Source: an uncultured Planctomycetales bacterium
GTDB lineage: Bacteria > Omnitrophota > Gorgyraeia > Zapsychrales > Fredricksoniimonadaceae
DNA: 64,000 bases
NCBI GenBank assembly: GCA_964520655.1
Contig: CAZFNI010000009.1
Location: forward strand, 5,909-69,908
Direction of reading: 5' to 3'
The notes beneath the pieces were generated by a model that saw only the letters and a program-made list of their open reading frames with translations, did not search any database and was not told the DNA's origin. Positions 28,869-56,150 of the stretch are shown here, piece after piece (position 1 is the first letter of the stretch; every line of letters starts with the position of its first letter). The position numbers and the translations under genes are program-made.

Positions 28869-29615
28869 TTAGGGTGCACTTTTAATATGGAATCCCGGCA
28901 AATGAGCCCTAGTATTGATGGAAATGCGTTTGACTGGCCCAGAATATGTGTATAATTCGGCAATATCCGCAGCCGACAAAGCTCTGTCATACACCCTGAC
29001 CTCATCAATGGTCCCCGTAAAATACTGATCGCCGCCATTGACCCCGTTGGATCCAATCGTACGCAGCTGATATGTATCCGCCTGTGCGACATCGAGATAT
29101 AACCGATTAGCGGTGCCGTTATCCACATAAAGGTCTGCCTTATTTGACGCATTTCTAGTTAAGGTGATCATGTGCCAAGTGTTAACTGCTGGCACTGCTA
29201 TGGTTGTATCGCTGTCGGATAGAAGGCGAATAAAGAAACTCCCGCCTGACATTCCAATCTTCCTCCCGCCGCCAGATGAACCCGTAGTATCACCCATAAT
29301 GATCCCTGTCTGGGCATTATTGGCTGTTTTATACCAAAAAGACATTGTGAAGGCGCCTGTTAATGGGATCTCAGTGAACGCGATATATTCTGTGCCGCTA
29401 AAACTGCGGCAATTGTTGAGATGACAACCAGCACTTAATATTGTTGTCCCGTTGGCGGTGCCGGTATTATTATTGCTGCTGGAGTCAATGGCATTGCCGG
29501 AGGATTCATCGAATTTCCACCAGCCGACAAGGTTTGTCGTGATGTTCGCATGGAGGATAGATGCGCCCAACAATAACGATACCGTCAGTAATATGCCGCA
29601 TTTGACCAAGTTCAT
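28869..29615 (-). CDS. secreted LamG-like (concanavalin-A-like lectin) protein
   Basis: Signal peptide followed by LVGWWKFDESSGNAIDSS…, the usual opening of a LamG_3 domain. Confidence 0.55.
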   Translation of the reverse strand: MNLVKCGILLTVSLLLGASILHANITTNLVGWWKFDESSGNAIDSSSNNNTGTANGTTILSAGCHLNNCRSFSGTEYIAFTEIPLTGAFTMSFWYKTANNAQTGIIMGDTTGSSGGGRKIGMSGGSFFIRLLSDSDTTIAVPAVNTWHMITLTRNASNKADLYVDNGTANRLYLDVAQADTYQLRTIGSNGVNGGDQYFTGTIDEVRVYDRALSAADIAELYTYSGPVKRISINTRAHLPGFHIKSAP

Positions 29616-31094: not shown

Positions 31095-32591
31095 ATGATC
31101 TCGAAAATCTTGTCGTTTGCCCTGTTGGGGCTGGATGCCGTACCCATCACCATTGAAGCGGACATCTGCGACGGGCTACCCTCTTTTACCATTGTCGGCC
31201 TGCCTGACAATGCCGTCAAAGAAAGCCGCGAACGCGTGCGTTCCGCGATCCACAACAGCGGACATCTATTCCCGCAGGGACGCATCACGATCAACCTCTC
31301 CCCTGCGGACATTAAAAAAGAAGGCCCGTGTTTCGACCTGCCGATCGCGTTAAGCATCTTGTGTGCCGGCGGGCTCATCAACCCGGAGGCCTTGAAACAT
31401 TACGCATTTATCGGCGAACTTTCATTAGACGGCGGCGTGCTTGGCATACGCGGTGCTTTGTCCTTTGCCCTGGGTGCAGACCCTTCGAAACTTCGCGGCA
31501 TTTTTCTGCCTAAAAGCAATGCCGCTGAAGCTGCAATGGCGGAACACCTGCCGGTTTTTGCTGTCACCAATTTAAACGATGTCCTTCAGGCCTTTAACGA
31601 CCCCGCTCTTTTGATCCCATTTAAATCCCCGACTTTAACGGGCGTTCATTATAAAACGTCATCCTCAATGGACTTTGCCGACGTGAAAGGCCAGTCCCAC
31701 GTCAAACGTGGTCTTGAGATCGCCGCCGCAGGCGGCCATAATGTGCTGTTGATAGGTCCCCCGGGCAGCGGCAAGACCATGCTGGCCAAACGCATGACGA
31801 CCATCCTGCCACCGCTCTCAAAAGATGAAGCGCTGAAAGTGACCCAGATCTATTCCGCTGCGGGGCTGCTGAAAAACAATACGATCGCAAGCGCAAGACC
31901 CTTCCGCAGCCCTCACCATACAGCCTCAGACATCGCGTTGATCGGCGGGGGCATGCACCCCCGGCCGGGCGAAGTAAGCCTTGCCCATCACGGCATTCTT
32001 TTTTTAGATGAGATGCCGGAATTCAACCGGAATACATTAGAGGTCTTGCGCCAACCCTTGGAAGATCATCATGTCACGATCTCCCGGGCAGCACGCAGCA
32101 TTCAATTCCCGGCTAAATTCATTCTCGTGGCCGCAATGAACCCCTGTCCGTGCGGATGGCGTTTGGGCGGACGCAAGCCCTGCCGCTGCTCTGCCCTTGA
32201 GGTCAACCGCTACATGGGTAAAATATCCGGCCCTCTGCTAGACCGCATTGACCTGCACATTGAGGTCAACGCCGTTAACAGTTTTGATCTTTTGAGTATC
32301 AAACGCGGCGAATCTTCGCTTGCGATCAAACAACGCACCACGGCTGTCCATGATCAACAGCGGCAAAGAGACGCAGCCAATACGTCTGGCATTCACCCGG
32401 ATCTTGCACTTGCAAGCGATGCCCAGACCCTTCTGTCTGCGGCAAGCGAAAAGCTTTGTCTTTCCGGCCGGGCCCATGACAAGATCATCCGCGTCGCCCG
32501 CACCATCGCCGATCTGGCCGGGCAGCCCGCGATCGGCCCCGCGCACATCGCTGAAGCCGTCAGCTACCGGGCTCTGGACAAAACCCTGTAA
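31095..32591 (+). CDS. comM: YifB/ComM-family Mg-chelatase-like AAA+ ATPase
   Basis: 498 aa with GPPGSGKTMLA Walker A and a ChlI-like C-terminus. Confidence 0.9.
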   Translation: MISKILSFALLGLDAVPITIEADICDGLPSFTIVGLPDNAVKESRERVRSAIHNSGHLFPQGRITINLSPADIKKEGPCFDLPIALSILCAGGLINPEALKHYAFIGELSLDGGVLGIRGALSFALGADPSKLRGIFLPKSNAAEAAMAEHLPVFAVTNLNDVLQAFNDPALLIPFKSPTLTGVHYKTSSSMDFADVKGQSHVKRGLEIAAAGGHNVLLIGPPGSGKTMLAKRMTTILPPLSKDEALKVTQIYSAAGLLKNNTIASARPFRSPHHTASDIALIGGGMHPRPGEVSLAHHGILFLDEMPEFNRNTLEVLRQPLEDHHVTISRAARSIQFPAKFILVAAMNPCPCGWRLGGRKPCRCSALEVNRYMGKISGPLLDRIDLHIEVNAVNSFDLLSIKRGESSLAIKQRTTAVHDQQRQRDAANTSGIHPDLALASDAQTLLSAASEKLCLSGRAHDKIIRVARTIADLAGQPAIGPAHIAEAVSYRALDKTL

Positions 32592-32662
32592 TGATCCATC
32601 ACCAGCCTTGAAATGTGCATAACGGCCCCTATAATGGTATTATTTACGTTAAAGGACCGTGT

Positions 32663-33037
32663 ATGAAGATCTTGCTGATCGATGATGATCCAGACATGTG
32701 CGCGCTGACCGCGAAGGTCTTAAAGACCTCCGGGCACGACGTTGCGGCTTTCGTGCAAAGCGCCCCCGGCATTGCCTATGCCAAAGCCAATGCGTTAAAC
32801 CTGATCTTGATGGACATCATGCTGCCGGGATTAAGCGGACCGGAGATCGTCCAGTCCTTTCAACAAGATGCTGTCCTTAAGACCGTGCCTGTTGTCTTTC
32901 TGACCGGACTTGTCACTGGCAGCGAAAAGAATTTACAAAATGAAGGGATCTCTGTCGGGGCGATCAAATACCCAACGCTTGGCAAACCATACGAGATCGA
33001 CCAGCTTCTCTTGACAGTGAAGAAATACGCGAAATAA
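32663..33037 (+). CDS. stand-alone response-regulator receiver protein
   Basis: MKILLIDDDPDM…ILMDIMLPG. I put the start at the internal ATG with an AAAGGA RBS, not at the track start 32615. Confidence 0.75.
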   Translation: MKILLIDDDPDMCALTAKVLKTSGHDVAAFVQSAPGIAYAKANALNLILMDIMLPGLSGPEIVQSFQQDAVLKTVPVVFLTGLVTGSEKNLQNEGISVGAIKYPTLGKPYEIDQLLLTVKKYAK

Positions 33038-33047
33038 CGGAGACACC

Positions 33048-34166
33048 ATGGCCAAAGAAAAACAGGTCCTATTTTTTGACGACGACAATAATGCCTTAAA
33101 TGAGATCACTCATCTGTTCCGGGACGAACCCTACGCGGTCGCGACCGCTAACAGCGTTGACCGCGCCATGGATATCCTGCGCAATGAAAAGATCAAGGTC
33201 ATTGTCTGCAGCCAGCGCATGCGGGAGATCGAAGGCGTCAAGTTCCTGCAGGACGTAAAGGCCTATTTCCCCGATGTTGTCCGCATCCTCATGGCCGCCT
33301 ATACCGATTTTGCCTCCGCGGAATACGCGATCAATAAAGGGGAAGTGTACCGCTTTATCAGTAAACCATGGAAAGACACAGAATTAGTCTCCATCATTCG
33401 CCGCGCCATCGAACATTTTGACCTGATCCTGCGCGCGGAACAGACCAATTTGAAACTCAAGGCCATGTACGAGGTCCAGCGCGAATTCACCTCCACCGTC
33501 TCGCACGAGCTGCGCACGCCGCTAGCCTCGATCAAGACCGCGATCGACTTAGTCGTCATGAAAACTTTGGGGGACATCAATAAGGAACAGGCCGAAGTCC
33601 TGCGCCGCGCCAAAAAGAATGTCGACCGCTTAAAGCGCCTGATCGACGACATCCTGGACTTGACCAAGATGGAATCAGGTAAATTGCAAATGAACTTCAT
33701 GCTCAATGATATCAACCGCTCGATCAAAGAAGTCGTCGAAGCGCAAAAAGACGTCGCCCAAAGCCGCGGGCTGTACTTAAGGACGCAGCTGGACAACCAC
33801 ATCAGCCCGACCGCCTTTGACAGCGACCGTATCATCCAGGTGGTCAACAACTTGGTCAGCAATGCGATCAAGTTCACCAAACGCGGCGGCATTGTCATCA
33901 AGACATCCAAACATGAAGAAGAGAACTGCATCTTAGTCAGTGTGATCGACACTGGTAAAGGCATTGCTGAAGAAGACCTGCCGAAGCTTTTCCAAAAATT
34001 CCATCAGATCGAGTCCGCGGAAGCCAATGAAGAAGGCGGCACTGGCCTGGGACTCGCCATCTGCAAAGAGATCATTACCCGCCACGGCGGATCAACTTGG
34101 GCGGAATCCGTCCTGGATAAGGGGACCACATTCCATTTCACCCTCCCTCTCCAAACACAGAAATAG
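33048..34166 (+). CDS. hybrid receiver + histidine kinase (REC-HisKA-HATPase)
   Basis: N-terminal REC (VLFFDDDNN), H-box STVSHELRTPL, and a G-box GGTGLGLAICKEI. Confidence 0.8.
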   Translation: MAKEKQVLFFDDDNNALNEITHLFRDEPYAVATANSVDRAMDILRNEKIKVIVCSQRMREIEGVKFLQDVKAYFPDVVRILMAAYTDFASAEYAINKGEVYRFISKPWKDTELVSIIRRAIEHFDLILRAEQTNLKLKAMYEVQREFTSTVSHELRTPLASIKTAIDLVVMKTLGDINKEQAEVLRRAKKNVDRLKRLIDDILDLTKMESGKLQMNFMLNDINRSIKEVVEAQKDVAQSRGLYLRTQLDNHISPTAFDSDRIIQVVNNLVSNAIKFTKRGGIVIKTSKHEEENCILVSVIDTGKGIAEEDLPKLFQKFHQIESAEANEEGGTGLGLAICKEIITRHGGSTWAESVLDKGTTFHFTLPLQTQK

Positions 34167-34172
34167 TCCTAT

Positions 34173-34961
34173 ATGAGCGAGAATTCACAAAAAACAATTT
34201 TAGTCATTGATGATGAGATCGACCTGCAGCAATTAGTCAAGATCGCGCTCAAATCCAAAGGGTATAAGATCGAGACCGCTAATAACGGCCTGGAAGGCTT
34301 GGCGAAATTAAAGACCCTTAGCCCTGACCTGATCATTCTGGACCTGAACATGCCAAAAATGGGCGGACTGGAATTCTACCAGAAGATCTGTGACAAGAAC
34401 AATCAGCCCAAATACCCTGTCTTTATCCTTTCCGCCCGCGCGAACATGACCCAGCTGTTCAAGGATTTCAACATCGACGGGTTCATGACCAAACCCTTTG
34501 AGATCGACGAGTTATTGGAAGAGATCGACACGATCATCCGCAAAAAAGCGAACCCCATCAAAAAGATCCATGTCAGAGGCGAAGACCGCGCCCCCAGGGT
34601 CTTTATCGTTGAGAACGACCAGGAGGCGCTAAAAAAGATCGGCCTTATTTTCCTTAACAGCGGCTATATCGTCAGCTCCGCGCCCGACGGCACCGATGCG
34701 ATCGAAAAGATCTACGACACCTTGCCGGACATTATTCTTGTTAAACTATCATTAACCGACATTTCCGGGGACCTGGTCATTTTACAGCTTAAACGCATGA
34801 TCAAGACCCAGCATATCAAATGCATCCTCTTTGTCAGTTATGTCGCCGAGATCACGGTCGTCGTTGACAAGATCAGCCGCAAAGAAGGGATAGACCGCTT
34901 CGTCCAATATTCCAATGTCCAGCAGCTGATCAATGCCGCTAATGAACTCCTGGGGATCTAG
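34173..34961 (+). CDS. tandem-receiver response regulator with no output domain
   Basis: Two CheY-like REC domains, VIDDEIDL…ILDLNMP and VFIVENDQ…. Confidence 0.7.
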   Translation: MSENSQKTILVIDDEIDLQQLVKIALKSKGYKIETANNGLEGLAKLKTLSPDLIILDLNMPKMGGLEFYQKICDKNNQPKYPVFILSARANMTQLFKDFNIDGFMTKPFEIDELLEEIDTIIRKKANPIKKIHVRGEDRAPRVFIVENDQEALKKIGLIFLNSGYIVSSAPDGTDAIEKIYDTLPDIILVKLSLTDISGDLVILQLKRMIKTQHIKCILFVSYVAEITVVVDKISRKEGIDRFVQYSNVQQLINAANELLGI

Positions 34962-34962
34962 G

Positions 34963-35412
34963 ATGAGACCGGCCTGTCTGCAACAATTCATTCTGCTGGC
35001 TGTCCTTACCCTGTCTTCGCCTGTTCTTGCTTCCAAGACTTCCGCTCAGCCACCTTTGCCGGAACAGGTGCTTGTGCGCGTGCAGCAATACAAATTAATG
35101 CTTAAAGACGTCGAGCCGCGGCCCGCGAAGGCCATCATCGCGGAATTAGTGAACAGCGACCATCCGATGCTCAATTTGCAGATCAAGGAAGCTATGGCTA
35201 AAACGTTTACCGACATTGTCCGGGAACAGAACGTCGAGGGTGAGGGAAAAAGAAAGTGGCTCTACAGCATGGTGGCGCTTAACATGGCCAATCTGCAGTT
35301 CGGCGGCTCATCTGGAAACAATCCGTTGAACACGATGATCCTTCGCAAGCTTAAAAAAAACCTGCCGCCGGAAGTCCTGACGCAAAAAGGTTTTCATATC
35401 TCGCTGGACTAA
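34963..35412 (+). CDS. small secreted hypothetical protein
   Basis: Signal peptide MRPACLQQFILLAVLTLSSPVLA. Start chosen at the internal ATG. Confidence 0.4.
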   Translation: MRPACLQQFILLAVLTLSSPVLASKTSAQPPLPEQVLVRVQQYKLMLKDVEPRPAKAIIAELVNSDHPMLNLQIKEAMAKTFTDIVREQNVEGEGKRKWLYSMVALNMANLQFGGSSGNNPLNTMILRKLKKNLPPEVLTQKGFHISLD

Positions 35413-35414
35413 AT

Positions 35415-36827
35415 TCACTGCACTTGCATCTTAGACAAGATCTCTGCGCGTGTTCGGCGGGCCTCGATTAGATCGGGATAGATCGAAAGCGCCTTATCGC
35501 AATCGGCGAGAGCCAGCGCGTATTCTCCCTTTTTGTCGTAAGCCACGCCCCTGTACCAATAGGCAAACGCCGTGCGCAGATCATGAGGATTGACCTTGAT
35601 GGCATGTGTCCACAAGGCAATATCATCCTTCCATACTTGTGTATACTGGGCTGTCTGTCCCGATAAGGACAATACATACGCAGATACCAGGATAACCCCC
35701 AGCACCGCCATATGGCGGGAAGAACGCTCGATAGCCTTAAGCACCACAACTGCCAGCGCAAGCGCCGCGCCTATGCCGGCTAAATAGGTGTAGTGCTCCC
35801 CCACGAACCAGTTGTGCCAGATCAATTTCAGCGGCATAAGCATGTTGATCAAAAAGAAAAAGGCCCCGAACAACACCAGCCTGTCTTTTCTAAAGAACCA
35901 AAACACCAAATATCCTGCGGCGATCGTGACCGCCCAGGACCAATAGACCATCACTGGGAAATGACCGTCGATCTTGTGAGGGAACGGATACATGCAGGAA
36001 AGATCGATCGGGAAAAACGTTTTGCTGATGTAAATAAGCAATGCGTGGAACGCCAACAACACTTTCTCTAACGGACCGGCGATCCTGGGATCGGTCGCGG
36101 AGAGTAAATGTGTATGCGGCATCATCCAGAAAAGATAATACGCCGCAGCTAAAAGAACATAGGGCCATTTCTCGACACATAACTTCATCCAGGTCCCCCG
36201 TTTTAAAAGAACATCGACGGCCAGCAGAACTGCCGGCAAGGTGATGGCCTGAGGTTTGGAGAATAACGCGCCCGCGAACAACAAACAGGACGCCATCATA
36301 TACCCTCGCCCGTTATTTTTCTGAAAGGCCCTCACATAACAAACTAGCGCGCCCAGATAGAAGAAAGCATAGAGCACGTCTTTGCGTTCCGCGACCCAGG
36401 CCACCGACTCAACCCTTAAAGGATGAATGGAAAACAGCATCGCGGTCAAGAAGGCCAACGCTGTCCTGGCGCTTAGCAGATAGATCAAAACGAATACCAA
36501 AAGCGCATTGGCCGTATGCAGCAGAAGATTGTCAACATGGTAGATCCACGGTGAAGATCCAAAAAAATGATATTCAATGGCATAGGAGATAAACGGCAGC
36601 GGAAAAATACCTCCGCCGTATAACTCATCAGCAATGATCTCTTGAAGATGGGCAGGACTTAAACCCTGGATGGTCGGGTTATGGGTGATGTAGATCGCAT
36701 CATCATATCCCAGCAGCGTGTGATCAAGGCATGAAGAAAAAATAAGCAGCGTCCAAAGACACAGCACGCCCGCCCATAGAAGAGCTGTTTTGGTGTGTTG
36801 GGGCATCAGCGATACATTCTCCTTCAC
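35415..36827 (-). CDS. TMTC/PMT-like GT-C membrane glycosyltransferase with C-terminal TPR (DUF1736-type)
   Basis: N-terminal LGYDDAIYITHNP motif, about 10 TM helices, and a C-terminal TPR segment (AFAYWYRGVAYDKKGEYALALADCDKAL). Confidence 0.55.
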   Translation of the reverse strand: MKENVSLMPQHTKTALLWAGVLCLWTLLIFSSCLDHTLLGYDDAIYITHNPTIQGLSPAHLQEIIADELYGGGIFPLPFISYAIEYHFFGSSPWIYHVDNLLLHTANALLVFVLIYLLSARTALAFLTAMLFSIHPLRVESVAWVAERKDVLYAFFYLGALVCYVRAFQKNNGRGYMMASCLLFAGALFSKPQAITLPAVLLAVDVLLKRGTWMKLCVEKWPYVLLAAAYYLFWMMPHTHLLSATDPRIAGPLEKVLLAFHALLIYISKTFFPIDLSCMYPFPHKIDGHFPVMVYWSWAVTIAAGYLVFWFFRKDRLVLFGAFFFLINMLMPLKLIWHNWFVGEHYTYLAGIGAALALAVVVLKAIERSSRHMAVLGVILVSAYVLSLSGQTAQYTQVWKDDIALWTHAIKVNPHDLRTAFAYWYRGVAYDKKGEYALALADCDKALSIYPDLIEARRTRAEILSKMQVQ

Positions 36828-36881
36828 AGGACAAACATATCATATCCCGATGCCTTCTGACCAGAGAGGATTACAAAATAA

Positions 36882-39800
36882 CTACTGCGCGCTGGGCAAG
36901 GCCTTGATCTGGTCCTGACATTTTGTCAATTCGGCCCGCAGCTCATTGATCTGATCGAACAGCGACTCATTCTTGTCTTTAAGATCGCCGTTCTCTTTCA
37001 TCACATCCATCAGACTGCTGTTAAGCGTCTTGATCTCTTTATTCATCGCGATCACGGACGGATCATTCTGGACAAGCCCCTCGCGTTTTTGCCTTAGCTT
37101 CTCTTTGAGGGTCGCGATCTGTTCTCTGGCATCGTCGAGCGCCTTGCGCAAGCCCTGAGGGTCAACGGACTTCGGGATCGCAGCTGCATTGATCCTGTCA
37201 TTGGCCGCATTGAGTTTCGCCGTCAGATCAGCGATCTGCTGGCGATCACGGGCGATGACTAAATCCACTCCCGATAAAGATGCCGGCAATAAATTGATCT
37301 TCTTTTCTTTGAGCTGCGCCTTTAAACGGGCGATCTCTTTGTTCTTCCAGCCGATCTCCTCATTCAATCTGGCGATGGTCTTTTGCTCTTTGTCCATATC
37401 TGCTTTGATCGCATCGATCGCTTTCTGCTGCGCCGTGAAATCAATGGCATTGTCCTCAAGACTTTTCTGCAATGACACGATCTGCTGTTCTTTGTTCTTG
37501 AGCAGATTATTGATCTGCAGCATTTCCTCACGGGAACTCTTGAGCATTTCTTTTAAACGTTCGGCATCCGCCCGGCGGTTCGCTTCCACCAGCTCTTCCT
37601 GGGTCTCTTTCAACTGCTTGCGCACTGCGGCCAGCTGCGCGTCAGAGATCTTGATCTGGTCTTTAAGCTGGTCCGCCAGCGTCTGCAGCACCTTGGTCTT
37701 GGCCTGCATGGTCGACTGGGCCATGCTCAAAGACAGGTCCTTGATCTGTACGTCTTTAAGAGCCTGGGACCGCTCGGTCTTGGTCCGCAGTAATTCATCC
37801 TGGGCTTTGATAAGAACATTCTCTTTACCCGTCATATCCTCATTGATCTTGCGCAAATTCACTTCGAGGGCATCTGCCCGCTGACGTGCCTGTGCGAGTT
37901 CTTTGCTTTGGTTTTCGTTGACGTCGGATGTTTCCTTCAGGCGGTCCTTGAAACGGTCCGTTATCTGGTAGGCCTCTTCTTTTTCCTTCTTGGCCGCTTT
38001 AAGCTCCTCGCTTAATTTCGTATTGTTCATGTTCATCGTATCGACGGCGAATTTTAATTCTGCCATCCGTTTCTCATATTCCTGCTGCTGCGCGGCCCAG
38101 TCATTCTTGGCCCCGTTCAATTTCTGTTTATACTCCTCCAGATTACCCAGCACTTTATTCTGATGCTCGACGATCAGCTTGTTCTTGACCATCAGCATCT
38201 CAATGCGCTGGCGTTGTTTAGCCTGCAGCATTTCCTGCAGCGCGCGGCGCTCATCCGTCTGATTCTTCTGCAAATTAACCGCTTCCTGGTTCTTAACGAT
38301 CTCTATACTGAGGGCCCTGGAAAGCTTATGGGACTGTTCTAACTGGTCTTTCAGGTCTTTTGATTCCTGCTTGGCCGCGGCGATCTGGTCATCCAGCGCT
38401 TTGGTATCGGCTTTAACGACCACAGGCTGTATCGTTATCCCTTTTTGCGGCTGCTGCTGCACAGAATCATTGGTATGGGCCATCTTTAAAAATGCTACCT
38501 GATCACGCATCTCTTTGGCTTCTTTTTGGGCGGCCGCTAATTGTTTCACCAGCGCATCGCGGTATTTCTCCTGATCACCGCTGCCCATCTGCCGCGCTTT
38601 AAGCTCGGTCAACTGATCGCGAAAGATCTGAGCCTGCGCCTTTAACGCGTCTAACTGAGCCATTTCCTTTGCTGTCAAACCACCCTGGGACTTAGGCGTA
38701 TCAGAAGAAGGATCACTGTTCTCTTTAACGATACCCGCGATCTCTTCGGGAGATTTGACCACGATCTGATAATGGCGTTTAAGCTCGTCTATCTCGGGAT
38801 CATTTTTCTTTCCTGTTGTGCGGACAGGATTCATGACCACGATCTCATACTGTTTCTTTAACCGGTCATATTCCTCACGCTGCAGCGGCGTCAATGAAGC
38901 CTTCACCGCCATCTCCGCGGCATTGGTATTGTTCCCCTGGATCTCGGCAGGTGTTTGCACCACTGAAGCGCCAGCCTGCTTTAAGCTTAACTTCAATGCC
39001 GCGATCTGGGCATCCTTTAAAGCGACATCATTATTTAGACTGCTGATCTTTTCTTTTAACGCCAAACCTCTATCCTTTAAATGGGCAAAGATCTCATCAT
39101 CTTTTCTGATCTTCGCACGCAGCTCCGCGATAACCTTATCGCCGCCCTGGGCAGGCATTTGCTCATCACGCAGCGCATTGAGCGCGGCCCGTAATTGCTT
39201 TGCTTGTTCTTTTAACGCGGCTAATTCATCGTCTTTACTGCCTTTGACCTCAACAACAGCAGGCACAGAGACAACTTCTTTCATCACAGGAGCAGCCCCC
39301 GGTTTCTCCAATTTTGCGATGGTGGCTTCCAATTCTGCCAGACGACGGCTCTTGATAGACAACTCTTCTTGATTGGCCACCAAATCTTTGGCCATGCGCT
39401 GCAAGGCCTGCTTGGCTCTCCACTCCTCATCCTGTGCTTTGGCTAGATCATTCTGCAGCGTGCCGACATCCGCGCGCTGATGCTTATTTTTTAATATTTG
39501 CGCCAGCTTTTCATTGAGCGCTTTGATCTCCTGCTCTTTTTGCGCGATCAGGGCGGACTGATCCTTGGGATCTTTCTTGACGGACTTGTGCAGGTCTGCC
39601 AGCTGTGCGCGCAATTGTTTAGCTTCTTCTTTAAGGGTAATGACCTCTTCCTTATCTTCAGAAACAATCACTTTGCGTTCTGTCTTTTTCGAAACGGCTG
39701 TTTCTTTGTTGACAATATCCAAGGCCCGCTGATCGTTGCGCTGCATCCCGGCGATACGTTCTTCCAATTCTGCTAAACGGCGGTCTTTGGCCGTGATCTC

Positions 39801-41147
39801 TTCTTTATTCGCAACCAGGGCCTGCGCGGTTTTCATCAATTCTGCTTTTGCGTCGTGCGCCTGAGCCTCCGCTTTAGCCAATTGGTCTTTCAATGCGGAT
39901 ATATTCGGATCTTGAACATGCTCCTGTTTGGGGATATGCGCCAGCTGGTCATTCAACTTTTTGATCTCCCGCTCTTTAACAGCGACGATATCGACCTGTT
40001 CCTGATATTTCTTGCGGAATGCTTCCGCTTTATCCCTGATCTGCCGCAGGTCCGCATCTTCTTCGTCAAGCTGTTTATGCATCAGCGCGTTCTGCTGGAG
40101 CGCATTGGCTAATTCTGTTTTAAGCAGGGAGATCTGTTCATCTTTCTCGCTTAATTTCTTCTCAAGCTCTGCCAGACGGGCATTGTTATCCTTGAAACTT
40201 TTCAATGTCTTGGCCAACTCCGCGTTCGAAGCGGTTAGGTCGCTTATCTTGGCGGTCTTCTCGACGATCTCACGCGCCATCCGCGATGAGGCAGCAGCGT
40301 CGACCTTGAGATCTTTTGTGGAATTGCGATAATCTTTAAGGGCAGTCTCATAACGGTCATTCGTTTTTGACAAGGCTTCCTTAATACGGGTCAACTCATC
40401 CTGAAGCAATTGAGACTGCGCAGACTTCTTCTGAAGCAAATCTTCCTTGTCTTTAAGCAAGCTTTCTTTCTCCGCCTGCATTTGATCGATCGACCGTTCT
40501 GGAACATGTGTACTGGCCAGCGCCTTGTTAACCGCGGCATTTTTATAATGTTGATTATTGCGGGCCAGTTGATTCTGGAAAGCCGCTAATTTGCTTTTGA
40601 GCGCTTCCACTTCTTTACTTTTTTCCTGATAGGCTTTATTGAGCTTATGATCGCCCTTCTGCGATGACAACCGGCTTAACTGCCGCTCATAAGCTTTGAG
40701 CTGCTGGTTCTTCTGCTGCAGCAGCATGGCCTGATCATTCAAAATGCGCTGGTTCTGGTCCAGCTCATTTTGAATACCGGCATCATTGATAACTATATTG
40801 GCGGGGGCCACTTCTCTTTCCCTGATATGTCCCACTTCAGCAGAGGCATCCACGATCTGATCCAACGCGCGGCGCTTATCTTCCGGCAAACTGCCATTCT
40901 GATCGATGAACGACTGATAGGCGTTTAAGATATCCGTCAATTGTCCGTATTGGTCCGGCTTGGCGAACATGTGTGCTTCATGCTCGAGCGCGATCTTATT
41001 TTCTAAAATTGATCGGGTTAACGCCTTGTTCTCGCGTATGAGTTGTGACACCGGAGGCTTTTCCGCGATGCGGCCAACTTCCTGTGCATGTGCCGGAATA
41101 GAAAGGCTTAAACCAATAAAGACGTGGATGATCTTGTATTTATTCAT
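36882..41147 (-). CDS. giant secreted coiled-coil protein (1421 aa, SMC-like rod without an ATPase head)
   Basis: Signal peptide MNKYKIIHVFIGLSLSIPAHA. Almost entirely E/K/Q/A/L heptad-like sequence with internal ~130-aa tandem repeats (…LVANKEEITAKDRRLAELEERIA… and …LVANQEELSIKSRRLAELEATIA…). I moved the start to the ATG at 41145-41147. Confidence 0.7.
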   Translation of the reverse strand: MNKYKIIHVFIGLSLSIPAHAQEVGRIAEKPPVSQLIRENKALTRSILENKIALEHEAHMFAKPDQYGQLTDILNAYQSFIDQNGSLPEDKRRALDQIVDASAEVGHIREREVAPANIVINDAGIQNELDQNQRILNDQAMLLQQKNQQLKAYERQLSRLSSQKGDHKLNKAYQEKSKEVEALKSKLAAFQNQLARNNQHYKNAAVNKALASTHVPERSIDQMQAEKESLLKDKEDLLQKKSAQSQLLQDELTRIKEALSKTNDRYETALKDYRNSTKDLKVDAAASSRMAREIVEKTAKISDLTASNAELAKTLKSFKDNNARLAELEKKLSEKDEQISLLKTELANALQQNALMHKQLDEEDADLRQIRDKAEAFRKKYQEQVDIVAVKEREIKKLNDQLAHIPKQEHVQDPNISALKDQLAKAEAQAHDAKAELMKTAQALVANKEEITAKDRRLAELEERIAGMQRNDQRALDIVNKETAVSKKTERKVIVSEDKEEVITLKEEAKQLRAQLADLHKSVKKDPKDQSALIAQKEQEIKALNEKLAQILKNKHQRADVGTLQNDLAKAQDEEWRAKQALQRMAKDLVANQEELSIKSRRLAELEATIAKLEKPGAAPVMKEVVSVPAVVEVKGSKDDELAALKEQAKQLRAALNALRDEQMPAQGGDKVIAELRAKIRKDDEIFAHLKDRGLALKEKISSLNNDVALKDAQIAALKLSLKQAGASVVQTPAEIQGNNTNAAEMAVKASLTPLQREEYDRLKKQYEIVVMNPVRTTGKKNDPEIDELKRHYQIVVKSPEEIAGIVKENSDPSSDTPKSQGGLTAKEMAQLDALKAQAQIFRDQLTELKARQMGSGDQEKYRDALVKQLAAAQKEAKEMRDQVAFLKMAHTNDSVQQQPQKGITIQPVVVKADTKALDDQIAAAKQESKDLKDQLEQSHKLSRALSIEIVKNQEAVNLQKNQTDERRALQEMLQAKQRQRIEMLMVKNKLIVEHQNKVLGNLEEYKQKLNGAKNDWAAQQQEYEKRMAELKFAVDTMNMNNTKLSEELKAAKKEKEEAYQITDRFKDRLKETSDVNENQSKELAQARQRADALEVNLRKINEDMTGKENVLIKAQDELLRTKTERSQALKDVQIKDLSLSMAQSTMQAKTKVLQTLADQLKDQIKISDAQLAAVRKQLKETQEELVEANRRADAERLKEMLKSSREEMLQINNLLKNKEQQIVSLQKSLEDNAIDFTAQQKAIDAIKADMDKEQKTIARLNEEIGWKNKEIARLKAQLKEKKINLLPASLSGVDLVIARDRQQIADLTAKLNAANDRINAAAIPKSVDPQGLRKALDDAREQIATLKEKLRQKREGLVQNDPSVIAMNKEIKTLNSSLMDVMKENGDLKDKNESLFDQINELRAELTKCQDQIKALPSAQ

Positions 41148-41556
41148 GATGGGCGGCCTGTATTTGTGTCCGAAGGGTATCGACATCGTTATTAAGGTCA
41201 GCCAAGAATTTCTCTTCCTTGGCAATGGCTTCTTTAAGGTCCATGTTAGGATCAGCCGCAACAGCTGCGATCTCAACGGGTTTCGCTGGTGCTTTAACCA
41301 ATGGCGCCGTATTGGTCTGTACTTCAGAGGCCTTCACCACAGGCTTGCTGCCATCCAGATTATAGCTGCGGCTTAGCTGCTTGATGCGCGCCATCACCCG
41401 TTCGGCTTCCCTGTGGTCGCCCCGCTGGTGCAGCTCCTTGGCATAGGTCAGCATGGTGTCGATCGCCACATCCCGCATAAAGCTGCTTGTCGTTGAAGCC
41501 ATTGCAGTTACGGCTGTAAAAATGGTGAAAATACACGCGATTGTCAGATTTCTCAT
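41140..41556 (-). CDS. small secreted helical protein, translationally coupled to the giant coiled-coil gene
   Basis: Signal peptide. Its stop overlaps the giant gene's start by 8 nt. Confidence 0.5.
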   Translation of the reverse strand: MRNLTIACIFTIFTAVTAMASTTSSFMRDVAIDTMLTYAKELHQRGDHREAERVMARIKQLSRSYNLDGSKPVVKASEVQTNTAPLVKAPAKPVEIAAVAADPNMDLKEAIAKEEKFLADLNNDVDTLRTQIQAAHHE

Positions 41557-41726
41557 ATTCCTTACCTGTTGATATGTAATGGTTTACGTTTCGAGTGTTT
41601 GGCTTATATCAAAATATTGATCTTGTCAACAAAATAATGCTGGAAGTATAACACCCAAACGGGGCATCGTCAAATTTTTAGAAAGGGCTTACCCCGAAAG
41701 AAATACCGCTTCCTGCCCCCTGAAAT

Positions 41727-46178: not shown

Positions 46179-46577
46179 ATGAAAACAGTACTCAATAAGA
46201 AAGGGTTCACGCTGGTCGAGATCATGATCGTCGTGGCCATCATCGCCCTGCTGGCGGCGATCGCTATCCCGAACCTGCTTCGGGCAAAATTGAATGCCAA
46301 CGATTCCCTGGCTAAATCAACCGTACGCGCGTTATCAACATCCTCAGAATCTTACGCAACCGCGCATAACGGGAACTACCCTACGAATGTGACGTCTTTG
46401 ACAGGCGCCAACCCGGCGTTCTTGAATAACGCCTACTGCGATTCAACCATCAGCGGGTACTTCTATACCTGTACCTTCACCACCAGCACCTACACCCTGT
46501 CAGCGACCCCGGTCACTGTCGGAACAACTGGTACGACCACATACACCATCTCTACGGGTGGTGTGTTAGTCCCATAA
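46179..46577 (+). CDS. type IV pilin / pseudopilin (prepilin-type N-terminal cleavage/methylation domain)
   Basis: KKGFTLVEIMIVVAIIALLAAIAIPN. Confidence 0.8.
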   Translation: MKTVLNKKGFTLVEIMIVVAIIALLAAIAIPNLLRAKLNANDSLAKSTVRALSTSSESYATAHNGNYPTNVTSLTGANPAFLNNAYCDSTISGYFYTCTFTTSTYTLSATPVTVGTTGTTTYTISTGGVLVP

Positions 46578-52305: not shown

Positions 52306-52842
52306 TTAACCTTTACTCTTTACCCAATCACCTAACTTAGGTATCGCCTTAGGCATTAAGGGGTCGTTTACCCATATATAGTGATCAGTTTTATCAATTA
52401 GAGGATATAAGCTTAAGTACTCTGTACCAATAAAAGAACTGTCGCTTGTATCTAATATTGGTAATATGGCGACAAGATTTCTATAGGCATCAAAATAACC
52501 TAATTCCCAAGGCATCCATTTTGACGAGGGACTGTTCTCAGAGGAGCAATAAATCAAGCTTCTTGATTGTCGCATCCGTTTTCTGAGAATTTCAGCCGTT
52601 TGTTTATTGACCTTATTTCTGTCTAAATTAGTTGGTTCTGATAACCAGTCAACATAACATTTTAAACCAAAGGTGGTTTCGATATAGCTTTTTAGTTTAC
52701 GAATATATTTTTTGTCTGCATAGCTATGTGACAAAAAAATATCGAATGTGTCCCTGTCACTAATGATGGGGCGGGATGCATTTTCAAACAAACGTGTCTC
52801 GTTGGTAGATTCTTCCAACATCGCTTTAGTAAAGAATTTCAT
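52306..52842 (-). CDS. TIR-domain protein (canonical bacterial TIR)
   Basis: 178 aa. FDIFLSHSYADKKYIRKL is a betaA-type motif. SRSLIYCSSENSPSSKWMPWELGYF is the S-x-W-x-x-x-EL motif and includes the conserved Glu. Confidence 0.7.
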   Translation of the reverse strand: MKFFTKAMLEESTNETRLFENASRPIISDRDTFDIFLSHSYADKKYIRKLKSYIETTFGLKCYVDWLSEPTNLDRNKVNKQTAEILRKRMRQSRSLIYCSSENSPSSKWMPWELGYFDAYRNLVAILPILDTSDSSFIGTEYLSLYPLIDKTDHYIWVNDPLMPKAIPKLGDWVKSKG

Positions 52843-52849
52843 ATAGCTC

Positions 52850-53734
52850 CTAATTTATACGTTTTGCACACCACATAGTGTGTTCCCTAGATATTGCATT
52901 CTCAGCATTAATAATATAATCAGAGAAATCTTTTTCATCTTTAACATGTTCACCTAGGCTTTCTATGCAAGTCAATTCGTGCTCAGCCATTGAGTATGCT
53001 TGGCTAAGTTCGCTGTGTTTTTTTATCTGAATCCATGCACAAAATATCGCGACTAAAGTTGTTATGGATCCTATAGGATTAAACCAAACTTCGGGAAAGA
53101 AAATTAGCAATACAGCAACAATAATACCAACAATTTCTCCTCCTAAGATTATGAAAAACCATAAATTCTCCTGGTCTTCATTAAGTTTAGATTTACGTTT
53201 ATACCAGTGTTTTTGATCTATGATCCGTTGAGGAACATAGAGTTTTTTTCTTTCTTCAAGTGAAAGAGCTCTAATCTGCTTCATTCTTACTGATATTTGT
53301 TTCTCGCCATTGGAACAAGAAGCCATTACAGCATGCACTTCGGGATGGGATCTAAATATTTCATCTAATTCTTCAATAAATTTTTTGTCAACGTCTACTG
53401 CGGACAAATTTAATTGATATGGGTGGGCTCCCATAATATAGCGCCATGTAGCTGTCTTAACTGATTCTGCAATGGCTCGTGTGTTAAACCAGTTATCATC
53501 CCACTTTCTAATTTTTATACATAGGCGGGATAAAAAGGCAAAAAAGAGCATCACTGCCGTAATTATGGCTAAAGTAGTGCAGGTTGCTACGTTGGTTAAA
53601 ATGAAACCTCCGGAAACCGCTGCACAAAACACAAAAAAGAATTCTGCTTTAGATGCCTTAAGATAACACTCTTGTTGCTGGATTGACACCGCATCACTTT
53701 TTTGAAATAAGGCAGGGTAGTCCGAAGGCTTCAT
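52850..53734 (-). CDS. membrane protein with two 2TM modules, SLATT-like (tandem SLATT_1/SLATT_3-type architecture is inferred)
   Basis: 294 aa. TM pairs at about 28-68 and 185-225, each preceded by a polar helix and followed by W-x-Y / E-H-E-L-type helices (TATWRYIMG). The gaps to the neighbouring genes are 7 and 10 nt. Confidence 0.4.
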   Translation of the reverse strand: MKPSDYPALFQKSDAVSIQQQECYLKASKAEFFFVFCAAVSGGFILTNVATCTTLAIITAVMLFFAFLSRLCIKIRKWDDNWFNTRAIAESVKTATWRYIMGAHPYQLNLSAVDVDKKFIEELDEIFRSHPEVHAVMASCSNGEKQISVRMKQIRALSLEERKKLYVPQRIIDQKHWYKRKSKLNEDQENLWFFIILGGEIVGIIVAVLLIFFPEVWFNPIGSITTLVAIFCAWIQIKKHSELSQAYSMAEHELTCIESLGEHVKDEKDFSDYIINAENAISREHTMWCAKRIN

Positions 53735-53744
53735 TTTATTCTCC

Positions 53745-54218
53745 TTAAACAGTTGCTAATTCACGATAAAAAGCTTCGTTATAAACGTAATTACCCGAAG
53801 CATTCATTTTGTAATTCTGTATTGCATGTGCGAGTATGCGTGGTGAGAATGGAACAAACACTGCTCCAATATTTTTTATGATAGGGGGACAAGTTTCTTC
53901 TATCATTTGTTTAGAGCCGTCTAGGTTAACTCCAATAATTACACATTTTTTTTCAATTGCGACTTCCGCCTCCCAACGTACATACTTATGTTTGCTTTTA
54001 GTATCTTTGCCAATCAACATAACATATTTACTTGCCATATTGATTCTTTCGCGGCACCTACTCTTGATGTATGCCTCATCTTCAGAACGGATTTCATTTT
54101 CCAACTGGCAATCAGCAAAATCAAAATCAATCTTCTCATTCGCTTTCCAAGCCTGCATTAAACGGTAAAAATGAATATCCGTACTGCTGAAACCTACAAA
54201 GGTTCTTGGTAGTCCCAT
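53745..54218 (-). CDS. ThsB-like TIR-like protein (DUF1863 / MTH538 TIR-like family)
   Basis: 157 aa. TFVGFSSTDIHFYRLMQAW at the N-terminus, then SKYVMLIGKDTKSKHKYVRWEAEVAIEKKCVIIGVNLDG. This matches the V-x-L-I-G-x-x-T…W-V-x-W-E-I…I-I-G-V pattern as I remember it. Confidence 0.55.
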   Translation of the reverse strand: MGLPRTFVGFSSTDIHFYRLMQAWKANEKIDFDFADCQLENEIRSEDEAYIKSRCRERINMASKYVMLIGKDTKSKHKYVRWEAEVAIEKKCVIIGVNLDGSKQMIEETCPPIIKNIGAVFVPFSPRILAHAIQNYKMNASGNYVYNEAFYRELATV

Positions 54219-54291
54219 TTCGCTCTCCTTAAAATTGAAAATTAAATTAAAATTAGTTTTTGATTTGTCTTAGTACTCAAGCCATAAAAAC

Positions 54292-54333
54292 AGCCCTACC
54301 TTTCTGTTTGCTTCGAACTTGCAAGGTAGGGCC
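54292..54333. promoter_or_regulatory. hairpin / operator-like element in the TIR-operon upstream region
   Basis: AGCCCTACCTT … AAGGTAGGGC form an inverted repeat. A third forward copy, AGGCCCTACCC, sits at 54371-54381. On the minus-strand RNA the stem is followed by UGUUUUUAUGG. Confidence 0.4.
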
Positions 54334-54438
54334 TTATGATCTATACTTAGGCTTAAGCAAAAAGCGACTAAGGCCCTACCCGGTCTGATTGTCGTTAGCG
54401 GTGTAACGTGGGGCCAACCACTTACACCGCGTTTCTTT

Positions 54439-55365
54439 TTAAGACATCTGGTCCTTCCCTTCAGCATAAGGTGCGAAAATTATTGAACGCTCAAGGTCAG
54501 CCTCAGCAATAGCCGTTTGGGTTGACCTGAATGCCGTAAAAATGTTTTCCTTTGTCTCCGACGAACAGTTGTTCAAAATTATCCGGACGCTCTTCGATTC
54601 TTTGGCAAGCACTAACTTTAACCCCATACCGCCACCATCGGCTTCCCAGGCAAATTTCCCCAACAATTCTCCGCCAGAATTCTTAAACTTTGACTCATCG
54701 ACCAATATAAAGATGTTATCGGCATTCTCAATCATAGCTGATTTAACAGCGCACTCCGACGAATTATAGGCCAATAACCCATTAGAAAGACTCAATGTGC
54801 TCGCCGCCAGAAATGCCATCTTAGCCCTAAAGGAACGAAAGAATTCCGCCGCCTTGCCCACCAAACACCGTTCTTCATATAAATACCGTCCACCGGTTAG
54901 GTGCAATCGTATGTTGGGAGGGCACGTGTAGTCTGACGCCGCTACATTATTAGTGATCACATTCAAATTTATATCGTTGACCATAGGATGCAACGAAATC
55001 TCGCGGAACAGAATCTGCGTCGTTGACCCGGCATCAAGAAAGATGACGGTGGGTTCACCCTGATTTTCTTCAATAAAATATTTCTCGATTACAAAGTTGG
55101 CGATGGCCTTCTTCTTATCGGCATTGTCTTGAAACCTACGATTAACCGCACAGTCTTTTACGCCGACAATTTTTGACCGAACACCACCCCGCACTTTCAA
55201 AACCAATCCTTCTTGGTGAAGGCGATCAATGTCCTGCCATACCAATTTGATCGAGGGGTACTTGAACTTTTCCATCAATTCTTCGGAGGTTGCCATGGCC
55301 CGAGTGGTCAACTCCTGAAGAATCTGGATCTTCCTTGTATTTAGGACTTCTTTGGAAACACGCAT
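54439..55365 (-). CDS. DeoR/GlpR-family transcriptional regulator
   Basis: N-terminal HTH and the C-terminal IFLDAGSTT motif of the DeoR sensor domain. Confidence 0.7.
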   Translation of the reverse strand: MRVSKEVLNTRKIQILQELTTRAMATSEELMEKFKYPSIKLVWQDIDRLHQEGLVLKVRGGVRSKIVGVKDCAVNRRFQDNADKKKAIANFVIEKYFIEENQGEPTVIFLDAGSTTQILFREISLHPMVNDINLNVITNNVAASDYTCPPNIRLHLTGGRYLYEERCLVGKAAEFFRSFRAKMAFLAASTLSLSNGLLAYNSSECAVKSAMIENADNIFILVDESKFKNSGGELLGKFAWEADGGGMGLKLVLAKESKSVRIILNNCSSETKENIFTAFRSTQTAIAEADLERSIIFAPYAEGKDQMS

Positions 55366-56075: not shown

Positions 56076-56150
56076 TAGCCCCAACGGGATTTGAACCCGT
56101 GTCTAAAGACTGAGAATCTTTCGTCCTGGACCAGGCTAGACGATGGGGCC
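56076..56150 (-). tRNA. tRNA-Glu(CTC)
   Basis: Hand-folded cloverleaf: acceptor GGCCCCA, D-arm GTCT/GGAC, anticodon stem AAAGA/TCTTT with loop TTCTCAG, T-arm CGGGTTCAAATCCCG. It has a G1:U72 pair, discriminator A, and no encoded CCA. The 5' end is uncertain by ±1. Confidence 0.65.

Follow-up and report, generated by a model that had tools for sequence, protein, structure and literature searches.

The 64,000-nucleotide (nt) stretch of contig CAZFNI010000009.1 analyzed in this work, hereinafter "the window", to which all coordinates refer, contains between positions 35415 and 41556 three co-oriented open reading frames (ORFs) on the minus strand, coding for a small protein of 138 amino acids (aa), a giant coiled-coil protein of 1421 aa, and a membrane protein of 470 aa that carries C-terminal tetratricopeptide repeats (TPR). 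An earlier reading of the sequence (the original prediction) had located the three genes at these positions, where the ORFs were confirmed, and had interpreted them as a single operon for a surface structure. Our analysis revealed that the small gene and the giant gene form a real, conserved two-gene unit representing an orphan family, and that the third gene stands beside them in the window genome alone and does not belong to the conserved system. We suggest that the pair is a two-gene operon encoding an exported partner and a coiled-coil rod, most likely an extracytoplasmic fibre, and we assign to this interpretation a probability of about one half.

A conserved two-gene unit beside mutS

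The giant was found in just three related uncultured genomes, that is, the window genome and the two represented by the loci L002 and L003. The search of a collection of 5.8 billion proteins retrieved the window giant and one relative (P0002, encoded by L002; 1570 aa, 46% identity), and an exhaustive HMMER search with residues 1-215 against 1.84 billion representatives returned the same two proteins plus one extra match, P0146, a low-complexity repeat protein that was discarded as spurious. The scan of 185,579 species genomes disclosed one additional carrier, L003 (1496 aa), an uncultured metagenome-assembled genome, and a scan of the Joint Genome Institute (JGI) metagenomes yielded L004, whose gene sizes and identities are the same as those of L003 and which was set aside as the same organism and not an independent carrier. 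The identical 1421-aa giant is also annotated on two public contigs, one of them 578,732 bp long. The pair has no relative on viral contigs, no PHROG match, and no relative among PDB sequences, and on the first two of these grounds a phage or mobile origin was rejected.

In the three genomes the gene order is the same: mutL, mutS, and then the divergent small-giant pair. The identity between genomes ranges from 66 to 96% for the flanking genes, versus 40-46% for the giant and 47-50% for the small protein, whose orthologues occupy the same position in L002 and L003; the two genes are the fastest-evolving ones of the locus. The claim that the small gene overlaps the start of the giant gene, and is translationally coupled to it, is borne out to the extent that the 8-nt overlap is invariant in all three genomes, as is the 14-nt junction CATCATGAATAAAT in which it lies (3/3 genomes). 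A mechanical list of ORFs lets the giant start from an upstream TTG (1464 aa); the part added in this way falls inside the small gene and is unconserved. A sigma-70-like element is present some 90 nt upstream of the small gene; its -35 hexamer, TG extension, and -10 hexamer do not vary among the window, L002, and L003, and it might function as the promoter of the pair (the coordinates of this and of the other features are reported in Table 1).

In the small protein, a putative signal peptide precedes two conserved helical portions joined by a variable linker: the segment SFMRD...YAKEL.QR.D..E...VMARIKQL and a C-terminal helix whose last residues are HHE. It has no matches in Pfam, NCBIfam, PHROG, or among PDB sequences. 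The idea that it might be a paralogue of a segment of the giant was also considered and rejected, the BLAST comparison having returned compositional similarity only.

Probable export of the two proteins

Signal peptides were judged manually from sequence features, i.e., the n-region, the hydrophobic core, and the AxA site. The signal peptide originally attributed to the giant is recognizable by these features in all three orthologues, and that of the small protein is equally canonical. The window giant starts with a stretch containing two Lys residues, after which come a hydrophobic core of 12 residues and an AxA site; in the orthologues the sequence PAYA, again followed by QE, stands at the corresponding place. 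Considering both proteins in the three genomes, each N-terminus embeds one or two Lys/Arg residues, a core of 11-12 residues, a Pro or a small residue, and an AxA-type site, with cleavage-like sites PAHA/QE, PAYA/QE, AMA/S, AFA/T, and VMA/A. No further hydrophobic or transmembrane-like segment occurs in either protein in any of the three genomes. Since the core is too short to span a membrane, and given the positive-inside rule, the bulk of each protein is expected to lie outside the cytoplasm, and it is likely that both the small protein and the giant are exported through the Sec pathway and that their signal peptides are cleaved.

The mature giant contains only one Cys (Cys1410, codon 36918-36920), which is invariant and lies 12 residues from the C-terminus; in an oxidizing compartment such a residue would be suited to form an inter-chain disulfide bond. 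A loose lipobox-like sequence, IISC, was recognized only in two of the orthologues, where it falls within the signal peptide; the window giant lacks it.

Internal architecture of the giant

The description of the giant as a succession of heptad-like tracts rich in Glu, Lys, Gln, and Ala was confirmed by four concordant lines of evidence. Five amino acids (A, K, L, E, and Q) account for 54% of the residues, and the protein contains 28 Pro, 31 Gly, and a single Cys; in 44% of the 28-residue windows the heptad a/d pattern scores above the 95th percentile of shuffles (a ninefold enrichment), and 84% of the residues fall within at least one heptad-positive window. The hydrophobic periodicity peaks at 3.48-3.52 residues, with a harmonic at 2.33, in all three orthologues (z = 9.8-20.4). 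Lastly, in the secondary structure predicted by AlphaFold for residues 1-1200, 83% of the residues are helical and no strand is present; the longest unbroken helix, of 122 residues, would measure about 18 nm, and all helices together about 146 nm. Right-handed coiled coils are built on an 11-residue periodicity (3.67 residues), whose signal is much weaker in the giant orthologues (z = 4.6-6.1). Thus, the periodicity of 3.5, together with the weak signal at 3.67, speaks for a left-handed coiled coil of the canonical type and against a right-handed one with 11-residue repeats.

Superimposed on this regular pattern is a marked contrast between the ends of the protein (56-68% three-way identity) and its center (2-24%, with indels and a module duplication). 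No globular head had been seen in the original prediction. This is correct in that no known domain was recognized; nevertheless, the N-terminal region is not featureless, since it embeds a small conserved head with three helices predicted, in a low-confidence model, at residues 33-60, 64-84, and 89-104. The head ends in an invariant stretch of 25 residues (87-111), LPEDKRRALDQIVDASAEVGHIRER, and has no relative among PDB sequences. The C-terminal region, of approximately 220 residues, is the other conserved portion.

The internal tandem duplications foreseen by the original prediction also stood in part. One clear duplication does exist, whose copies share 38-44% of their residues with E-values of 1e-12 to 1e-14; the period is not about 130 aa as stated but about 145 aa. 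The central rod differs between the orthologues by many indels and holds the main Pro/Gly/Ser/Thr linkers of the protein. A module recognizable by the motif KKQYEIVVxNP occurs once in the giants of the window and L003 and twice in P0002, the model being of low confidence across it.

Comparison with known coiled-coil systems

In Vibrio cholerae, crvA and crvB are adjacent genes and CrvA is a coiled-coil-rich protein, several times shorter than the giant. CrvAB is described as a periplasmic, polymer-forming protein complex through which the cell receives its shape from a site outside the cytoplasm (PMC11369160, PMC8938487). The pair described here shares with it the presence of two adjacent genes, whose products bear signal peptides and one of which is a long coiled coil, so that CrvAB appears to be its closest functional analogue, the resemblance being one of function only. 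The partner is, however, merely 138 aa long in our case, and searches of Pfam, NCBIfam, and the PDB retrieved nothing for the pair, the sequences of CrvA and CrvB themselves not having been compared.

A second group of systems includes Thermotoga Omp-alpha, the OmpM/SlpA tethers, Braun's lipoprotein, and tetrabrachion, all of them exported proteins made up for the most part of a long coiled-coil rod, which sets a distance or acts as a stalk in the envelope. No homology of the pair to any of them was detected. These proteins carry anchors, such as SLH domains, beta-barrels, lipids, or membrane segments, whereas none was found in the giant: the outer-membrane tether hypothesis met with no Pfam or NCBIfam domain, no second hydrophobic segment, and no strands (residues 1-1200). 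At about 146 nm, the summed helix of the giant far exceeds the width of a periplasm. Tetrabrachion is a key constituent of the Staphylothermus marinus S-layer, with a right-handed coiled-coil stalk (PMC6555900); the giant differs from it in peaking at 3.5 and not at 3.67. Neither LPXTG nor a conserved lipobox was found when the giant was considered as a Gram-positive M-like fibril or a lipoprotein.

Very long heptad coiled coils are typical also of SMC, Rad50, and MukB, and weak partial NCBIfam matches of the giant to coiled-coil arms were indeed detected. They lie far below the respective cut-offs (67 bits against 567 for the SMC_prok_B model TIGR02168; 11-26 against 1000 for the Rad50 models), and an SMC/Rad50 identity was rejected. 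The giant has neither a head nor a hinge domain and bears an N-terminal signal peptide; moreover, the original statement that it lacks a Walker A motif, and hence is not an SMC protein, held for all three orthologues, in none of which the expression GxxxxGK[ST] found a match.

The third gene codes for a GT-C-fold enzyme-like protein

The gene downstream of the giant had been assigned to the TPR-bearing glycosyltransferases of the TMTC/PMT kind. The GT-C fold, the DD motif, and the TPR were recovered, while a Pfam match to PMT or TMTC, and membership in the TMTC family proper as defined by DUF1736, were not. Pfam recognizes in the 470-aa protein only TPR_1/TPR_2 (residues 420-452), with no match to PMT_2 (PF13231) or DUF1736 (PF08409) even at E <= 10. 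The protein has at least 4444 homologues, mostly of 550-750 aa, and thus belongs to a very large bacterial family, whose members are named "TPR repeat protein" or, in some cases at JGI, "protein O-mannosyl-transferase". PMT_2 matches 14 of the 46 aligned homologues (best E = 7e-9), and DUF1736 is outside the 25 most frequent families. Since the protein itself gives no match while 14 of 46 homologues do, its homology to PMT_2 is transitive only. A profile of the membrane domain searched against PDB sequences gave nothing, and the full-length profile retrieved TPR proteins only.

The GT-C nature of the protein was established through its homologues and its fold. The AlphaFold model reaches a predicted local distance difference test (pLDDT) of 92.3 and a predicted template modelling score (pTM) of 0.93, and the leading matches found by Foldseek in the PDB are all GT-C enzymes (21/21, nearly all with probability 1.00): ArnT, Pmt4, AglB, STT3, and PglB, followed by Pmt1/2, DPY19, and ALG3, with TM-scores of 0.31-0.49. 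The best one is ArnT (5f15; E = 2e-4, TM-score on the query 0.45), the TM-score of Pmt4 (9i5k) being 0.49; ArnT (5ezm/5f15) is also the best template reported for TMTCs (PMC7801869). With TMTC1-4, PMT, and ArnT the protein shares a multi-pass membrane domain, here followed by the C-terminal TPR. TMTCs possess an acidic DD/DE motif in the first extracytoplasmic loop (M1) and an ERxxY-type motif (M7) whose Arg contacts the donor phosphate (PMC7801869). Residues D42/D43, present in 45/45 aligned homologues having the column, and the family-conserved R148-K149-D150 (R-x-D) and K191 resemble the motifs M1, M3, and M4 (PMC7801869), respectively.

There are also differences. Besides the missing PMT_2 and DUF1736 matches, the protein has no MIR domain, and its model shows only four helices at 402-466, corresponding to about two TPR hairpins, so that its TPR portion is much shorter than that of most members of the family. 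Furthermore, the (D/E)RYTY motif, which would correspond to the TMTC motif M7, reads GEHYTY in the window protein (residues 342-346; positions 35790-35804) and GEHYMY in P0006, its closest orthologue, that is, with Glu-His in place of (D/E)R, whereas Arg is found in 42 of the 46 aligned family members, the window protein being included in the count. The replacement of Arg by His may alter the binding of the donor or reduce activity. About 11 membrane helices are present in the model, in which the TPR tail would face the periplasm, and it is probable that the active site also faces this compartment. On the whole, this is a GT-C-fold enzyme-like protein with a DD motif and C-terminal TPR, whose putative activity would be the transfer of a glycosyl group from a polyprenyl-phosphate sugar to a protein acceptor.

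In a different setting (L006 10-636 and L007 1-525), P0007, a relative of this protein with 49% identity, comes immediately after the C-terminal portion of a further multi-pass membrane protein, which has a soluble tail; the two may represent a tandem GT-C-like gene pair.

The enzyme is not a conserved neighbor of the giant

The giant gene and the enzyme gene are separated by 54 nt, as originally stated, provided that translation starts from the GTG codon; the start chosen by the public gene call, ATG at 36806, gives a protein of 463 aa and a gap of 75 nt. The expected linkage of the three genes in one operon was not observed in the other two carriers, in neither of which the enzyme lies downstream of the giant. 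In L002, a convergent ORF6N gene begins 1 nt after the giant and is followed by a ComM-like gene; in L003, the convergent ComM-like gene follows the giant directly. The block which in the window separates ComM (31095-32591) from the giant, and which includes the enzyme gene, is missing from both. As far as adjacency is concerned, this is the outcome that the original prediction had named as its own refutation. Part of this block (32615-35412, plus strand), coding for two response regulators (one of 140 aa and a double-receiver one of 262 aa), a hybrid histidine kinase (372 aa), and a 159-aa protein for which no family was recognized, is missing from the syntenic loci of L002, L003, and L005.

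L005 carries P0006, the closest orthologue of the enzyme (50% identity), within the same ORF6N/ComM/DUF212/YkuD/AccA/RlmN locus. The upstream neighbor of P0006 is not the giant; it consists of the end of an ABC-ATPase gene and of about 470 nt of nested inverted repeats. On the basis of AccA identity, which is lower between L005 and the other three (80-82%) than among the window, L002, and L003 (90-92%), L005 is an outgroup to them. The enzyme gene was thus probably present at this locus in an ancestor; L002 and L003 would then have retained the giant but lost the enzyme gene from this place. More distant members of the enzyme family lie in unrelated gene contexts.

The inverted repeats of L005 (190-660) deserve a separate mention. 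Their arms measure 50, 32, and 20 nt, with 94, 88, and 100% complementarity, respectively, and they resemble a miniature inverted-repeat transposable element (MITE) or a large structured element located exactly at the synteny break with the window.

As regards the giant as a substrate of O-glycosylation, which had been proposed together with the operon, the giant proved to be poor in Ser and Thr: these residues amount to 8.3% of the protein overall and to 13.8% of the non-helical linkers, and the best Ser/Thr/Pro patch spans residues 810-825, NSDPSSDTPKSQGGLT. With an unconserved neighbor and a Ser/Thr-poor giant, a dedicated enzyme-substrate link, in which the giant would be glycosylated by the product of the adjacent gene, is unsupported.

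A model for the pair and its alternatives

According to the model that we favor, the conserved sigma-70-type promoter would drive a two-gene operon, and the 138-aa and 1421-aa products would be exported through Sec with cleavage of their signal peptides. Outside the cytoplasm, the giant would oligomerize in parallel, possibly being stapled by its invariant C-terminal Cys. The resulting fibre might lie in the periplasm, as a "periskeletal" filament or spacer, or form a fibril on the cell surface. The conserved ends of the rod would make specific contacts, the middle being a fast-evolving spacer of variable length, and the small protein would act as a stoichiometric partner, i.e., a cap, an assembly factor, or an anchor. 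A bolder form of this idea is that a heptad rod of roughly 150-200 nm with dedicated end domains polymerizes, aided by an obligate small partner, into a periplasmic or surface skeleton, a filament system not described before and modified in some species by the GT-C/TPR enzyme; we consider it unlikely.

Several points weigh against the fibre model. The conservation of the pair is drawn from three closely related genomes, and the export call rests on manually assessed signal-peptide features and not on a predictor or an experiment. The AlphaFold model of residues 1-1200 of the giant has low confidence (pLDDT 53, pTM 0.28), so that its tertiary fold and oligomerization are uninterpretable. Scans with Pfam, NCBIfam, and motifs revealed in the giant no SLH, OmpA-like, LysM, or beta-barrel domain, no LPXTG, and no conserved lipobox. 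Moreover, since no terminator-like site was predicted in the gap between the giant and the enzyme gene, co-transcription of the two is possible in the window genome. The enzyme gene also looks ancestral at this locus, being present in the window genome and in the outgroup L005, and a functional link that was later lost is conceivable.

These last points bring us to the idea that the three genes make up one surface-structure operon, in which the TMTC/PMT-like enzyme would O-glycosylate the giant in the periplasm and its TPR tail would recruit the substrate. The genes are co-oriented, 54-75 nt apart, with nothing resembling a terminator in between; the enzyme combines the GT-C fold and the DD motif with a TPR tail on the predicted periplasmic side; the giant does possess a few Ser/Thr/Pro linkers, such as that at residues 810-825; and the presence of the enzyme gene in both the window and the outgroup L005 suggests that it may be ancestral at the locus. 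Nevertheless, we regard this scenario as decidedly unlikely, because the enzyme is not downstream of the giant in either of the other carriers, its closest orthologue adjoins an ABC-ATPase gene, its family occurs in heterogeneous contexts, and the giant is on the whole poor in Ser and Thr. Besides, with about two TPR hairpins the window enzyme falls short of the many that are usual in the family, and the Arg kept by 42 of the 46 aligned members has become His. A different perspective is offered by the streptococcal M proteins: the pair might be a secreted adhesin or effector fibril acting on host, prey, or partner cells and evolving fast, in a similar manner, under diversifying selection, instead of being a housekeeping scaffold of the envelope. 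This would be in agreement with the rapid evolution of the two genes, with a rod whose length varies through the gain and loss of modules while its ends are conserved, with the failure to find an envelope-anchor domain, and with an extremely narrow lineage distribution. Fast divergence is, however, expected for any coiled coil, in which the heptad pattern alone is constrained; no recognizable binding domain, secretion-system signal, or dedicated transporter was found in the operon; and the stable synteny beside mutS, together with the lack of a viral-contig match, argues against a mobile locus of the virulence type. A role of this kind thus seems improbable to us. As to the cellular side on which the giant resides, its N-terminal hydrophobic segment might be an uncleaved anchor that tethers to the membrane a cytoskeletal protein lying in the cytoplasm, as with EzrA or other proteins rich in coiled coils. 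A cytoplasmic location is common among long bacterial coiled-coil proteins, and the signal peptide was called from manual features only. However, the core has only about 12 residues, and Pro and an AxA site come after it; the two Lys before it, by the positive-inside rule, place most of the protein outside; the signal peptide of the small partner is just as canonical; and all three orthologues maintain these features, which together make such a location very unlikely. The extracytoplasmic fibre stays our preferred interpretation.

Other features of the window

The features of the locus discussed above are collected in Table 1. Elsewhere in the window, an islet of low GC content (52306-55365, minus strand; GC 0.38-0.42 versus about 0.50 elsewhere), adjoined by a tRNA gene (56076-56150, minus strand), codes for a ThsB-like TIR protein of 178 aa, a SLATT_3+SLATT_1 effector of 294 aa with two transmembrane segments, a second ThsB-like TIR protein of 157 aa, and a DeoR-type regulator; we note it as a candidate TIR-SLATT island of anti-phage defence. 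A gene (28869-29615, minus strand) inserted between those of DUF212 and Nramp codes for a 248-aa Laminin_G_3 (concanavalin-like) protein, and the relatives have nothing corresponding to it in their syntenic loci. In all genomes, mutL is followed by a gene for a prepilin-type N_methyl protein of 132 aa (46179-46577, plus strand in the window; 86-88% identical), after which a secretin gene (L002 2973-5016) is found in L002, a 529-aa ORF in L003, and an Acyl_transf_3 gene on the opposite strand in the window.

Table 1. Coordinates in the window of the three genes and of the features recognized within and around them.
Feature	Position	Strand	Basis
Small exported protein gene (predicted export), 138 aa	41140..41556	-	ORF and translation
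Giant coiled-coil gene, 1421 aa; ATG at 41147, stop 36882-36884	36882..41147	-	ORF call
GT-C/TPR membrane protein gene, 470 aa from GTG at 36827	35415..36827	-	ORF call
Overlap of small stop and giant start, 8 nt, ATGAATAA	41140..41147	-	Sequence
Putative sigma-70-like promoter: TTGACG, 17-nt spacer, TATACT, TG extended -10	41645..41673	-	Consensus scan, 10/12 positions
Giant, putative signal peptide, residues 1-21: MNKYK / IIHVFIGLSLSI / PAHA, then QE	41085..41147	-	Manual features
Giant, conserved N-terminal head, residues 33-111	40815..41051	-	67-71% pairwise identity, versus 47-50% for the whole protein
Giant, internal tandem duplication, residues 362-516 and 507-656, period about 145 aa	39180..40064	-	Segment BLAST
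Giant, variable central rod, residues ~450-950	38298..39800	-	Three-way identity 2-24%, gapped
Giant, module KKQYEIVVxNP ... RHYxIVVKSPEEIA, residues 764-805	38733..38858	-	Alignments, motif count
Giant, conserved C-terminal region, residues 1200-1421	36885..37550	-	56-60% three-way identity

Concluding remarks

The data reported here separate a conserved two-gene unit from a neighbor that resembles a partner. As for this neighbor, the bacterial family known as "TPR repeat protein" to which it belongs has a GT-C fold, in spite of the missing Pfam match of the window protein. The giant and its small companion are an orphan pair and represent a new sequence family, though one whose structural kind is known; their interest is modest. 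If the pair does build a fibre, it would represent a new sequence family among the few extracytoplasmic skeleton elements known in bacteria, and it would offer a concrete target for cryo-electron tomography and proteomics in an uncultured group.

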